From IMG/VR virus record IMGVR_UViG_3300025154_000069, positions 15,080 to 79,079 of that record: a stretch of DNA of 64,000 nucleotides; one strand, 5' to 3'. Shown in pieces: positions 29,359-62,512 of this stretch. Under the pieces are notes generated by a model. That model was given only the letters and a program-made list of their open reading frames with translations, ran no database searches and was not told the origin of the DNA. This DNA comes from a virus. The translations under genes and the position numbers were made by a program. Every line of letters starts with the position of its first letter. The first letter of the stretch is position 1.

Positions 29359-29376
29359 CCGATTTATTCACATTTG

Positions 29377-29419: not shown

Positions 29420-30166
29420 ATGGAATCAATAAAATTGTGGGATTCTGGTGTGTTCGGAGACCATAAAGAATATAAACTTGTTTATCTCGGTATGCTCATT
29501 CCTTATGGGCTTTTGGATAGGGTCGGTTTATTTATAACTAAGACCGATCTTGTAAAGGCATCAAAGAAGTTTGTCCAAGAGGTTATTGATACTCTTATTG
29601 AAGAGGGCTATGCAGAAAATGACGGAGATAAGGTGTACCTTGCATACTATAACGGAACCAAGCTTAACTTCTTGTATCTTGATAACAAGAATGATAATGT
29701 GGTTATTAAATCCGCTTCCGATAAATTCTATTCCCTATTGGAACCGTCACTTGATGAGTATAAATCAATATGTAGTGATTTCCGAAAGGACACATTTTTC
29801 TTGCAGGTTCGCAGGGTTATAGATTTATGCTTAATAAGGATGAAAAAAGGACAGGCAGCAGACTTTGATGTGGTTAAAATGATTCGTGCTATTGACGGGA
29901 TTACTTCCGGAGCTTTGGGTATGGATTTTATATCGAGCACAGCGAGGGAAAAAGCTTATGTTTCGTCACTAAGGAAGATATTTAATGATGATGTTATGCT
30001 TTCACTCTCTTATCTCTACTTTATGCAAAACAGGACAAAATTTGCAACCAAAGGGGTGTACAATATGTATAGCTTTAAATGGATTGCCCCACAGGTTCAA
30101 GGTTTGGTAGTAAAAGCATTAAATGAAAATAAAGGAGCGCGCGGTGATGGAAAGAAATATTTCTAA
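29420..30166 (+). CDS. Hypothetical protein, possible replication initiator
   Basis: Directly upstream of the DnaC-like loader and DnaB; function inferred from synteny only. Confidence 0.4.
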   Translation: MESIKLWDSGVFGDHKEYKLVYLGMLIPYGLLDRVGLFITKTDLVKASKKFVQEVIDTLIEEGYAENDGDKVYLAYYNGTKLNFLYLDNKNDNVVIKSASDKFYSLLEPSLDEYKSICSDFRKDTFFLQVRRVIDLCLIRMKKGQAADFDVVKMIRAIDGITSGALGMDFISSTAREKAYVSSLRKIFNDDVMLSLSYLYFMQNRTKFATKGVYNMYSFKWIAPQVQGLVVKALNENKGARGDGKKYF

Positions 30167-33122: not shown

Positions 33123-33155
33123 ATTTATTTTTACCTTTACAATAAAATTAAAAGC

Positions 33156-45865: not shown

Positions 45866-46255
45866 ATGTTAGAAGTTAAGATTATTCCTAAAAGGAGTGA
45901 ATCCTTTAAGTTAATTTATGTTGAAGGAGAAATATTGAAGCTTTTCGGTGAGAGGATAAAGGGTTATTTTTTAATTGACACGGGAGCCACACTATCCATT
46001 ATACACAGTAATTATTCGGACTTCCTTAGAGATACAGAATCAATAACGCTTGTAGGTGTTACAGGACAGAAAAAAACCAAGCATGGAATACTTGATATTG
46101 AGATCGGGGGTAGTAAATTTACCATAATGAATGCGGTTTCTTCTGACTTTAAACCTATGAAAAAGGGTACGTACTTAGGCATATTGGGCTTAGATTTCCT
46201 TATAGAAAATAGCTGTACTATAAATTTAGTTGAAAATATTTTGCATATTAATTAA
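45866..46255 (+). CDS. Retropepsin-like aspartic protease
   Basis: FLIDTGAT, flap GVTG, GILGLDFL. Confidence 0.9.
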   Translation: MLEVKIIPKRSESFKLIYVEGEILKLFGERIKGYFLIDTGATLSIIHSNYSDFLRDTESITLVGVTGQKKTKHGILDIEIGGSKFTIMNAVSSDFKPMKKGTYLGILGLDFLIENSCTINLVENILHIN

Positions 46256-46270
46256 AAGGTGTTATCTTTG
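46240..46270 (+). promoter_or_regulatory. Complete Bacteroidota promoter (TTTG-19 nt-TATCTTTG)
   Basis: -33 TTTG at 46240 and -7 box at 46263. Confidence 0.7.
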
Positions 46271-46327
46271 TTTCAACTAAAGTATACTACATGTTGTATT
46301 TTTAAAAAGGTTTAAAATTTTATAGCT

Positions 46328-46447
46328 ATGAAAAAGACCATCGTTTTAGGTGTGGGCGCATTAGCCAAATCTGCAATTTCAAGAACAAGAAGTTTGGTTC
46401 AAAGATCAAATGCATTTAACGCCACATTAGCCGGAGGCGGAAGATAA
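46328..46447 (+). CDS. 39-aa basic peptide MKKTIVLGVGALAKSAISRTRSLVQRSNAFNATLAGGGR
   Basis: Below the ORF-track cutoff; has its own promoter and terminator; A at -3 region and A-rich leader. Confidence 0.75.
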   Translation: MKKTIVLGVGALAKSAISRTRSLVQRSNAFNATLAGGGR

Positions 46448-46473
46448 GTACCCTCCAAACTAATCGCACATAC

Positions 46474-46503
46474 TAAGCACCTATAATCAGGTGCTTATTT
46501 TTT
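46474..46503 (+). terminator. Intrinsic terminator
   Basis: TAAGCACCT-ATAATC-AGGTGCTTA plus TTTTT. Confidence 0.8.
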
Positions 46504-52721: not shown

Positions 52722-52770
52722 TTAAAAATAAAATTTTATTACTTTTACACATAACTAAAAATTTATTGAG

Positions 52771-56017: not shown

Positions 56018-56257
56018 ATGGATTATAATGTAGAACGTGCTCTCAGAGGGAAGGTAGATGAGCACACATTCAACGCCTTAAAACAAGAGGTTGACAGGCT
56101 AAAGCAAGAGAACAGAGACCTGCGGGGGGATATAGAACGAATTGAGAGTAAGTTAAGAAACAACTATACAACAAGTGAAGCCTTGATTAATGCACTGATA
56201 GAAAGTGATAAATTTGAGGACACTAATAGGTTATTTGAGATTAGAATGCAACTTTAA
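56018..56257 (+). CDS. Small coiled-coil protein
   Basis: Heptad pattern. Confidence 0.55.
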   Translation: MDYNVERALRGKVDEHTFNALKQEVDRLKQENRDLRGDIERIESKLRNNYTTSEALINALIESDKFEDTNRLFEIRMQL

Positions 56258-56261
56258 AAAT

Positions 56262-57176
56262 ATGAAAAAAGAATATCGAAGTGTAAGGCTTAGTAAGGAC
56301 AATCTTGAAAAGCTTGAGGTTATTAACAGAATAGTAGAGGATTATCAACGGCAAGGGTACAAGCTAACCCTTCGGCAGCTATACTACCAACTTGTAAGCA
56401 AGTCTGTAATTCCGAATAATGTTACCGAGTATGCAAAAATATCCAAGCTGCTAAAAGAGGGCAGAATGGGGGGTGTTGTTGATTGGGATGCTATAGAGGA
56501 CAGACTAAGGGTTCCTTATACACCTGCATCCTTCAAAAGTGAGAAGGATATACTTGATGCAGCTATAGAGCAGTTTCAGTTACCGAGACAAGAAGGGCAG
56601 GACAACTATATGGAGGTTTGGGTTGAGAAAGATGCTCTTAGCGGGGTGTTGAAGAAAGTCACAAAAGGATTTCACATACCATTGCTTGTAAACAGAGGTT
56701 ACTCATCTGCTTCTGCCATGCACGATGCATATAATAGGTTTTATGATGCCGTAGAGGATGGCCAGAAGGTGATAGTTTTGTACCTTGGAGACTTTGACCC
56801 AAGTGGTAAGGATATGATAAGGGATATTACAGAAAGAATTAAGGAATTTTATGTAGGTGATTGGAGAGTCGAGCAAAATAATCTACCAGAATTTAGTGAC
56901 GTATTCTCATTAAACCCTATAGCTCTTACAATAGATCAAATAAAACAGTATTCTCCCCCACCGAATCCCGCAAAAATAAAAGACCCCCGGGCAAAGGAAT
57001 TTATGCAGAAATATGGTGCTTCAAGTTGGGAGGTCGATGCACTTAGGCCAGACGTACTACACAAACTGTTGTACAATGCAATAACAGACAGTTTGGATAT
57101 GGATAGGTATGAGGAGATACTCGAAAAAGAGAAAGCCGGGGTGAAGAAGCTAAAATCACTTAAAGACTACTTGTAA
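56262..57176 (+). CDS. Top6A/Spo11-like WHD-TOPRIM protein
   Basis: TLRQLYYQLV, WVEKDA, RGYSS, GDFDPSG, WEVDAL. Confidence 0.75.
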   Translation: MKKEYRSVRLSKDNLEKLEVINRIVEDYQRQGYKLTLRQLYYQLVSKSVIPNNVTEYAKISKLLKEGRMGGVVDWDAIEDRLRVPYTPASFKSEKDILDAAIEQFQLPRQEGQDNYMEVWVEKDALSGVLKKVTKGFHIPLLVNRGYSSASAMHDAYNRFYDAVEDGQKVIVLYLGDFDPSGKDMIRDITERIKEFYVGDWRVEQNNLPEFSDVFSLNPIALTIDQIKQYSPPPNPAKIKDPRAKEFMQKYGASSWEVDALRPDVLHKLLYNAITDSLDMDRYEEILEKEKAGVKKLKSLKDYL

Positions 57177-57197: not shown

Positions 57198-57419
57198 ATG
57201 AATGAACTAACAGTAAGGGTTGATGTACCCACATTGAAAAAAAGAATCTTAGCGGATTTTGGCGAACAGGTTAGAGATGGGGAAGAGTTTGATAAGGACT
57301 TTGACAGGTTCTTGGATGATCTGCTTCTTAAAACGAACTCGGTTTTGTCCGAATCGTTCTTTATTAATTATGGAATTAAAGAGATATTTGTAACCGATCA
57401 AGATGGAAAAGCGGAATAG
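57198..57419 (+). CDS. Hypothetical protein
   Basis: ORF. Confidence 0.5.
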   Translation: MNELTVRVDVPTLKKRILADFGEQVRDGEEFDKDFDRFLDDLLLKTNSVLSESFFINYGIKEIFVTDQDGKAE

Positions 57420-57666
57420 GGTTGTTGGTGAGTTTAGCCAAATAACTACTTTAGAACTTCCTGTTTGGGTAAGGGTTATGAAAGCAGAGAACAAGAAGAT
57501 AACAGCAGAGGAGCTACTAAGCGAGCTTACTCTTATTGATGATCTCTTGGTGTTGCAGAAGTCTCAGTCACTTCTTAGCAGAAAGAGAGGTCTTACTTCT
57601 ATGTTGGAGGCAAGAATCGGGAAAGAGCTTGGCCATAAGGTTCCAAATATGAACAGGAAAAAATAA
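57403..57666 (+). CDS. Hypothetical protein
   Basis: ORF. Confidence 0.5.
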   Translation: MEKRNRVVGEFSQITTLELPVWVRVMKAENKKITAEELLSELTLIDDLLVLQKSQSLLSRKRGLTSMLEARIGKELGHKVPNMNRKK

Positions 57667-57667
57667 A

Positions 57668-57699
57668 TTTGCTTTTCTATTCTGAATGGGTTATATTTG
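57668..57699 (+). promoter_or_regulatory. Complete Bacteroidota promoter (TTTG-20 nt-TATATTTG)
   Basis: -33 TTTG at 57668 and -7 box at 57692. Confidence 0.7.
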
Positions 57700-57703
57700 T
57701 CAT

Positions 57704-57774
57704 GATTTCCATAATCAATAAATTTAAGAGTTAAACAAATGTTAAAAGCCCGACCATCCGACCCGGGCTTTTTT
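57704..57774 (+). ncRNA. Putative ~70-nt small RNA
   Basis: Bounded by a consensus promoter and an intrinsic terminator; no credible ORF. Confidence 0.6.
57744..57774 (+). terminator. Intrinsic terminator
   Basis: AAAAGCCCG...CGGGCTTTTTT. Confidence 0.8.
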
Positions 57775-57860
57775 CATACCTACCAAACAAAAATAGTACC
57801 TATAAAGTGCTATAAATAACCCTTTTATACTTATCTTTACTCTATAGAAAAAACAAAACA

Positions 57861-58415
57861 ATGGCAAAAGAGGACATAAACAGGTTACGAATGAAAATCA
57901 TCGTAGATGTGGTTTGCAAGTATTACTCGTTCCCTAAAGAAACCCTAATTGAGATGGTTAAGAGCAGAAAGATGGAGATTGTAAAGGTTAGGCACATGAT
58001 AAGCTACTTCGGTAAAGAAAAGACAGGATTATCCCTAAATGAAATCGGGGAATTTATCGGTGGTAAAGATCATGCATCGGTTTTATATGCACATGGTAAG
58101 GTTGAATCTGATATGTCTATTTATAAAGACACGACCAGCACCATTGATGATCTTATGAGTAAAGTTTACGCAGCTCTAAAAAAGGGGGAGTTGGTAGTAT
58201 CAGAACCAGATAAGATCACTAACAGACCGGATATTAAAAAGTTCATGCCTAAGAGCACAACGGTTGAGGACATTCAAAAAATGTTCGAGGCATATCCAGA
58301 ATGGTATGATTACATGGTAGCCCTTGAAATGTATCTTGATAACTACATTGATGGGTATGAAATTATGAAAGAAAGAGAAAAACTTTATAAAAAATCTAAA
58401 AGAGGAAGTTTATAA
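57861..58415 (+). CDS. DnaA domain IV (DNA-binding HTH) protein
   Basis: KSRKMEIVKVRHMISY...LSLNEIG..IGGKDHASVLYA; no AAA+ domain. Confidence 0.85.
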   Translation: MAKEDINRLRMKIIVDVVCKYYSFPKETLIEMVKSRKMEIVKVRHMISYFGKEKTGLSLNEIGEFIGGKDHASVLYAHGKVESDMSIYKDTTSTIDDLMSKVYAALKKGELVVSEPDKITNRPDIKKFMPKSTTVEDIQKMFEAYPEWYDYMVALEMYLDNYIDGYEIMKEREKLYKKSKRGSL

Positions 58416-61586: not shown

Positions 61587-62480
61587 AAACCGGCTATTTT
61601 TGTTTTTCATGGTAGGTCTATAAATAGCTACTATTCAACACAAAATAACAAGTTGATTTTCAATAGAGTATAAACATAAAATAAAGCCTAAAAAGGGGTA
61701 ATAGATGTTAATTTATTGCCCTTTTTATTTTGCATAAAATAGGGCATTTTAGAGGGTATGAAAAATTAAAAATTCCGGGGGCTGAGATGAGGCGGAAGTA
61801 TTGAATATATATAGTAATAATAGAGAATAAATACATATAGTGACAGGGATAACAGAACAAAAGGAAAACCGGGGGAGGATATGAGTAATTAAGGAGTAAT
61901 AAAAAGATATAATACACATTATACAGAGAGACATATACTAAATGAGAGAATAAAACAATAATAAACACTTTTGAAACCTTTATACACCCCACTACACCCC
62001 TTATAATGACAGTTAACTATATATAACAGAAGATAATAAAGCAGACTAAAAAAATCTCAAAACCTCTATTATCCTCTATTACCCTCTTATAGGTTCTGTA
62101 AGACATTGCAAATCAGCATTTTACAAACGCCTGTTTTCAAGGGTTCCAGAGCTTATTAAGGCTTAGTAAGGCTTATTTAGTGCAAAATAGGTCATTTTTG
62201 GTGGGTATATGTGTCATTTTCGACCTTGAAAATATGTGCCCGATGTGTTAGAAACTTTTAGTGGTAGTAATCAAGCACTTGACTTTTTGAGGTTTTTATC
62301 TCCACGGGGGGAAAAGTGACACCCGTTTTTTTCATCTAATTGGTTCTCAGACTGTTGTGAGATAATAAAAAATCACTGAAAAATGGTCAAAATTGTTAGA
62401 AACTTTTGCCGTTTTTGGCCTGTTTTTGCCTTATTTTAGATTAGTAATCCTTAGATGAATTTAAAATTACTTTTTTACAG
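61587..62480. other. Long non-coding region (origin or genome-end candidate)
   Basis: About 0.9 kb with no credible ORF; purine-skewed tract, 10-bp tandem repeats, IHF-consensus matches. Confidence 0.5.
61691..61726 (+). terminator. Long hairpin / probable terminator after dnaN
   Basis: 16-bp stem with G-U pairs (AAAAGGGGTAATAGAT-GTTA-ATTTATTGCCCTTTTT). Confidence 0.6.
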
Positions 62481-62481
62481 T

Positions 62482-62512
62482 TTTGCGGGGTCAGAAAAAA
62501 GGCTTATCTTTA
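62482..62512 (+). promoter_or_regulatory. Bacteroidota-type promoter (TTTG-19 nt-TATCTTTA)
   Basis: Upstream of ATG 62540. Confidence 0.55.

Follow-up and report, generated by a model that had tools for sequence, protein, structure and literature searches.

[quoted passage not shown] Both pair with the start regions of their target mRNAs, by which translation is blocked (PMC7366714, PMC11697453). The seeds of B. thetaiotaomicron sRNAs are AU-rich, unstructured and directed at start regions (PMC7366714, PMC11697453), and a start site together with an intrinsic terminator is the hallmark of the validated intergenic sRNAs of this species (PMC7366714). A further class, the 3'-UTR-derived sRNAs, possesses its own promoter and uses the terminator of the parental mRNA (class as defined in PMC7366714). 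In lambdoid phages, antitermination control leaves a short RNA spanning PR' to tR' as a by-product, from which the sRNA StxS arose in Stx phages (PMC7547250).

The locus was found in a phage whose sequence was recovered, identically, in groundwater metagenomes of two studies. The window (the whole stretch that was analysed, 64,000 nt) covers bases 15080-79079 of a 79,079-bp IMG/VR virus record, which carries 127-bp direct terminal repeats. All of the likely phage genes (117/117) are located on the plus strand, and the gene starts have no Shine-Dalgarno sequence. A sharp peak of A was observed at -13/-12 (73 and 80 of 111 phage starts), with A also at -3; A at these positions was described as a start-region determinant in Flavobacterium johnsoniae and a signature of Bacteroidia (PMC6847099). 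The nearest relatives of a Toprim-like protein encoded next to the locus (phrog_6247) were found in MAGs labelled Ignavibacteria, Chitinophagaceae, Bacteroidetes, Arsenicibacter and Saprospiraceae, with 53-61% identity. Because of the A-rich starts lacking Shine-Dalgarno sequences and the labels of these MAGs, a host from Bacteroidota or a close FCB group is well supported, but not proven. The same Toprim-like protein (window 56262-57176) has relatives with 40-61% identity in MAGs from a great number of phyla of bacteria and archaea (Nitrosopumilus, Paenibacillus, Dehalococcoidia and others), and looks like a widely travelling replication gene of phages or mobile elements.

The features of the locus, numbered by the window, are the following.

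57403 to 57666, plus strand: upstream ORF of 87 aa, last gene of the preceding unit, with no Pfam or PHROG match

57658 to 57671, plus strand: A-rich upstream stretch and -33 element AAAAAATAAATTTG, with the core TTTG at 57668-57671, as read from the sequence

57692 to 57699, plus strand: -7 element TATATTTG, separated from the -33 TTTG by 20 nt and in full agreement with the sigma-ABfr consensus of Bacteroidota

57705 to 57743, plus strand: single-stranded 5' part of the RNA as predicted by folding, about 39 nt, 82% A+U

57744 to 57774, plus strand: intrinsic terminator as predicted by folding, with a 9-bp stem (a 5-bp G-C core and four A-U pairs), an 11-nt loop and U6; the hairpin itself is 57744-57772

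57832 to 57840, plus strand: variant -7 box TATCTTTAC, a 7-of-8 match, whose start lies 29 nt before the next ATG

57861 to 58415, plus strand: downstream gene of 184 aa with a DnaA C-terminal helix-turn-helix domain (PF08299, 1.7e-16), called DnaA_C below

The -33/-7 consensus for sigma-ABfr, the primary sigma factor of Bacteroidota, was taken as quoted in PMC7366714. The extended -33 element TAAATTTG begins with the TAA stop codon of the 87-aa ORF. The initial annotation had described a promoter of the form TTTG-20-TATATTTG, and the motif at 57668-57699 is indeed perfect. It had also described about 40 nt of unstructured sequence followed by a GC hairpin and a U tract, with which the predicted fold (about 39 nt, 9-bp stem, U6) agrees, and a single-stranded part that mirrors a start region ending in ATG-GAA-ATC, which is what the reverse complement of 57705-57745 reads; the minus-strand ORF in this place has the 11 codons that were given for it. 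The observation as such, a promoter, a free stretch and a terminator with an antisense that looks like a translation start, was thus confirmed. Transcription would start at about 57704-57706. The predicted 72-nt RNA (57705-57776) is composed of a free 5' part and a single hairpin (-13.7 to -14 kcal/mol, z -3.5 to -4.3), and its candidate seed includes CAU, the complement of a start codon, at 57710-57712. The hairpin at 57744 was skipped by the consensus terminator scanner solely because the loop limit was 8, while the loop here has 11 nt.

The likeness of the antisense strand to a start region was scored with a position matrix made from 111 phage ATG starts (-30 to +9). The minus-strand ATG at 57712 reached 7.7 bits, which was above 94% of the true starts (leave-one-out), was matched by 0.1% of 2,599 non-start ATGs and was reached by 0.06% of composition-matched shuffles (0.02-0.06% across versions). 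In the antisense of the candidate RNA, positions -13, -12, -11 and -3 are all A. The Rfam FopS consensus served as positive control, and its antisense scored 7.65 bits, compared with 8.0 bits for the candidate locus (29-nt version); the start-region likeness is real and equal to that of FopS, a validated family of start-occluding sRNAs. The site had been picked by eye for its start look, so that the fair figure is the intergenic rank of about 0.02: 2 of 120 intergenic non-start ATGs reach 7.7 bits, and rank 2 among 120 is, after that selection, only modest evidence. The plus-strand ATG at 57739 is start-like as well (5.2 bits), and the spacer is palindrome-prone (AAATTT). Two further measures, shared 9-mers (14/52 in start windows, which make up 5.9% of the genome; P = 0.02) and the mean duplex energy of the five best phage start regions (P = 0.015 against shuffled seeds), restate the generic start-likeness.

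Our best explanation, with a probability of roughly 0.4, is that the locus is a FopS/GibS-like small RNA gene, which would give a stand-alone, non-coding RNA of about 70 nt that blocks translation starts. Judging from the motifs, the host RNA polymerase with the Bacteroidota primary sigma factor would start at about 57705 from the consensus promoter and would stop at the hairpin/U6 terminator, at about 57775, a terminator that would also close the upstream operon. The free AU-rich 5' half, with CAU near its 5' end and U's opposite A-13, A-12 and A-3, could then pair with the start region, lacking a Shine-Dalgarno sequence, of one or more mRNAs. By analogy with FopS and GibS in B. thetaiotaomicron, such pairing would block ribosome loading on a target mRNA of the phage or of the host.

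The candidate has much in common with FopS (Rfam RF04319) and GibS, including the size of about 70 nt, a sigma-ABfr-type promoter, an AU-rich single-stranded 5' part, CAU near the 5' end and one Rho-independent terminator, and the predicted fold of 57705-57776 shows a feature by which the FopS family is described (PMC11697453). Over its full length the FopS model could be aligned to 57702-57778, where CAU takes the same position, with 16.8 bits (E = 1.5 when 151 nt were searched), and at a comparable threshold it had no match in six other terminator regions of the phage. Membership in FopS (RF04319) was rejected, with 16.8 bits against a gathering cut-off of 56. The conserved R1' seed of FopS is not kept in the candidate: about 27/40 consensus positions agree with three insertions, and a strict local alignment covers only 16 nt. 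While the candidate seed is complementary to AUGGAAAU, that of FopS is complementary to AUGAAAAA. FopS is a multicopy chromosomal family of gut Bacteroides, whereas the candidate is a single copy on a groundwater phage; FopS binds RbpB and has susC-type targets, whereas neither a SusC-type or other target nor an RbpB-like partner was found for the candidate, and no RRM-type (RbpB-like) protein is encoded in the phage. We read the two as alike in build, to some degree necessarily since each is antisense to generic start regions of Bacteroidota, and not as members of one family.

The main rival, which we consider possible although doubtful, is a promoter-proximal terminator in the style of lambda PR'-tR'. 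The promoter would then feed the DnaA_C block, the terminator would damp or gate it by leaky read-through or through an antitermination factor, and the RNA of about 70 nt would be a by-product, with or without a trans role like that of StxS. A promoter followed by a terminator ahead of a co-directional gene block is the layout of lambdoid late control (PMC7547250), and StxS and lambda 6S RNA resemble the candidate in having a phage promoter closely before an intrinsic terminator, co-directional with a gene block, and an RNA of about 70 nt, with a role in trans that is known (StxS) or proposed (the candidate). Leakiness is also at hand in this phage. The next genes behind the strong terminators at 29376 and 46474 begin at 29420 and 46532, 20-35 nt on, without a recognisable promoter; these genes, including a DpdA-like gene, must rely on read-through, therefore terminators of the phage must leak, and a terminated short RNA at the candidate locus could be a mere by-product. 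Moreover, the ATG at 57739 (5.2 bits) lies 5 nt before the hairpin, and ribosome loading there could prevent the hairpin from forming.

Several features speak against this rival and set the locus apart from StxS and lambda 6S RNA. Neither a Q-type nor any other Pfam antiterminator was found in the phage (PF06530 and PF03589 were absent), and in folding the leader offered no alternative antiterminator pairing. The candidate also differs in its host and type of promoter, and no Hfq is known for such a setting. The distance from a -7 box to the ATG of its gene is 9-34 nt in all other cases, whereas the -7 box of the candidate locus and the next ATG are 162 nt apart, with the terminator between. 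In addition, the DnaA_C gene has the variant -7 box TATCTTTAC past the terminator at a spacing typical of the phage, and this box is likely to be its own promoter, so the candidate unit looks self-contained. Variant boxes of the form TAnnTTTAC occur 22-67 nt ahead of about eight other genes, and among these the order of terminator, box and gene was seen once (33643/33703/33743). Such sites were noted at 33126, 33703, 52740, 57832 and 63066 of the window and at about 1859 and 2935 of the genome; they may represent a second promoter class or a tolerated G-to-A variant. On this reading of the sequence, a separate unit is favoured over a promoter for DnaA_C.

Rather unlikely is an ordinary operon end, in which the hairpin would have no role but to end transcription of the upstream genes, the promoter motif would be silent or without importance, and the start look would have arisen by chance in an AT-rich 3' untranslated stretch. 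Gene-end terminators are common in the phage, where about nine strong plus-strand terminators were found, all of them at gene ends and the hairpin at 57744 among them, and transcripts from the upstream genes are certainly also ended by the terminator at 57744-57774. In this respect the locus resembles the 3'-UTR-derived sRNAs, of which DapZ is a typical example: the candidate promoter abuts the upstream stop codon, and the terminator is shared with the upstream mRNA. It differs from that class in that the putative promoter lies just outside the coding sequence, so the candidate could equally be called intergenic. The spacer is AT-rich with start-like sequence on both strands, the site was selected by eye, and neither a target nor conservation was found, all of which would suit an ordinary operon end. 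On the other hand, the stop-to-hairpin distance is 10-26 nt at the other terminators and 78 nt here, and exactly this gap of 78 nt is taken up by promoter and free stretch together, while only 0.06% of the shuffles were equally start-like.

The promoter statistics also argue against a silent motif. Promoters were counted in the intergenic DNA (about 5 kb) plus 35 nt upstream of each gap, where four full-consensus promoters were observed and 0.09 were expected in all from Markov shuffles, which makes a chance occurrence improbable. For -7 boxes, 21 were observed versus 4.6 expected, and the minus strand of the same intergenic regions contained 0 full promoters and 3 -7 boxes. The promoter motif class is real in this phage and strand-specific. 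Of the four full-consensus promoters, one lies between the left terminal repeat and the first gene, one precedes a 47-aa ORF by the capsid module, one precedes a 39-aa ORF, and the fourth is that of the candidate locus. An extended upstream stretch, AAAA-TAAATTTG, is common to three of the four, the candidate locus included, and is near-identical at the two others that carry it. The promoter of the 39-aa ORF belongs to a self-contained unit of similar build at window 46240-46497 (promoter 46240, ORF 46328-46447, terminator 46474), therefore the phage does use small self-contained transcription units. At genome bases 135-167, just past the 127-bp repeat, a perfect TTTG-N20-TATATTTG was seen with the upstream stretch AAAAATAAATTTGC as at the candidate locus; it is followed by a purine-rich leader of about 330 nt and by the ATG of the first gene at 498, and a weak hairpin lies at about 421-441.

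Searches for relatives of the locus gave the following results. In the whole window nothing was found at the gathering level of Rfam, and local low-threshold matches (MicC with 24 bits, FopS with 16.8 bits, and others) were far below their cut-offs. No similar DNA was found among GenBank phages, and an exact search for the hairpin in IMG/VR had no match. Among 56 viral and 80 genomic loci with a Toprim-like neighbour, none had the 87-aa ORF, the DnaA_C gene or the element. The DnaA_C protein had no relative in IMG/VR, nor among the proteins of 101-322 residues in a set of 5.8 billion proteins. When about 1 Mb of related loci was scanned for a consensus promoter and a terminator within 160 nt, the candidate locus alone was found. 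In four groundwater DNA runs, the contigs that cover the locus came from two studies and were identical to the window, so there was no variation to read.

Another alternative, which we regard as improbable, is an anti-start tail on the phage's own messages, acting either while attached to the upstream mRNA at its 3' end or as a free RNA, and damping the first gene or the 79-aa ORF at 56018. In the long transcripts of phage T4, the start regions of genes e, soc, 49 and I-TevI are sequestered, and as in that scheme the candidate has an anti-start sequence upstream of a proximal promoter and gene. Pairing within the phage was evaluated with 117 start regions and a genome-wide duplex scan. The first gene (ATG at genome base 498; 388 aa, no family) gave the best duplex, in which its start region paired with the element at -18.8 kcal/mol over 22 bp in three helices from -25 to +7, and the second-best was formed with the start region of ORF 56018 (-16.6 kcal/mol), which lies on the same presumed operon as the element. 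The first-gene duplex had P = 0.065 against shuffled seeds, however, and about 8 non-start sites of the genome pair equally well or better; the in-phage pairings are at chance level. Moreover, the phage has only one such element, and unlike in the T4-type scheme it is not complementary to the start of the next gene, the usual target there. DnaA_C was rejected as a target, since its start region gave -6.2 kcal/mol (rank 77 of 117) and no such pairing appeared in the folds of the read-through RNA.

The start matches that the initial annotation had cited for ORFs 52771 and 59346 (words at 52759 and 59344) likewise turned out to be at chance level, the 10- and 11-mers having P = 0.08-0.26. For targets in the host, the 26-mer complement with up to 3 mismatches was searched in 401 Bacteroidota genomes and gave 2 matches, both inside long ORFs, with 0 for the reversed control. 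The exact 21-mer complement was found in 11 metagenome contigs, in most of them in frame inside coding sequence and in none at a convincing gene start; the sole possible start belonged to a 47-codon ORF on an unrelated AT-rich contig. When the element was compared by BLAST with 26 genomes from one candidate host family, the 12 best matches were short and had no ATG opening a long ORF. Enrichment of complements at start codons was thus not seen in Bacteroidota genomes or metagenomes, and this is half of what the initial annotation had named as counter-evidence; such negatives are weak, since the genomes searched need not include the true host and sRNA pairing is imperfect. The proposal of a trans-acting, start-occluding sRNA was supported in part, by the well-formed unit and the start-like antisense, whereas a specific target, be it a host defence or receptor gene or a phage gene, was not found.

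A tiny protein gene is very improbable, although both strands offer good start contexts (plus, 5.2 bits; minus, 7.7 bits), a 39-aa mini-gene built in a similar way is present in the phage and the minus strand has a -7 box (57795-57788), because the 26-codon plus-strand ORF (57739-57819) crosses the terminator and would leave a terminated RNA without a stop codon, the 10-codon ORF (57702-57734) begins upstream of the inferred transcription start, and for the 11-codon minus-strand ORF the transcript would meet the hairpin first in a phage with 117/117 genes on the plus strand.

Some other non-coding regions of the phage were also noted. At window 61595-61730, a -7 box TATTTTTG directly follows the stop of a 409-aa gene, with no TTTG at -33, and after about 90 nt a very strong terminator is found (61692-61725), which makes a second short unit possible. 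[quoted passage not shown] The surrounding region near the right end (window 61587-62482), about 900 nt without a convincing ORF, contains many repeated words, such as two copies of GTTAGAAACTTTT, and AAGGCTTA/TAAGCC motifs also present in the terminal repeat, and may be an origin or a packaging region. At genome bases 1716-1790, immediately 3' of the first-gene terminator, a 24-nt unit (ACAAGCCTACAGGACTACAGACAA) is present three times in tandem; these iteron-like units may be a protein-binding array or an origin. An origin or operator was rejected for the candidate RNA locus itself, near which the DnaA boxes form no cluster.

The locus appears as a single unconserved instance, and is presented as a well-defined candidate for testing rather than a discovery. 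We tentatively suggest that an environmental, lytic-type phage of Bacteroidota may encode a FopS-like, start-codon-occluding RNA from one of its four strongest promoters, by which a host gene (for example a surface transporter serving as receptor) or its own first gene could be shut off. Knowledge of regulatory RNAs in Bacteroidota is limited to a few gut species, and that of phage-encoded sRNAs almost entirely to enterobacterial phages. If the suggestion is true, phages of Bacteroidota would thereby gain their first described RNA regulator, as far as the literature searched shows, and a simple search signature would follow, consisting of a consensus promoter, a free start-mirroring stretch and a terminator. 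Anti-start-codon sRNAs would then be a general tool where Shine-Dalgarno pairing is not used, and start-region occlusion would extend to the conflict between phage and host in a phylum whose ribosomes ignore the Shine-Dalgarno sequence.
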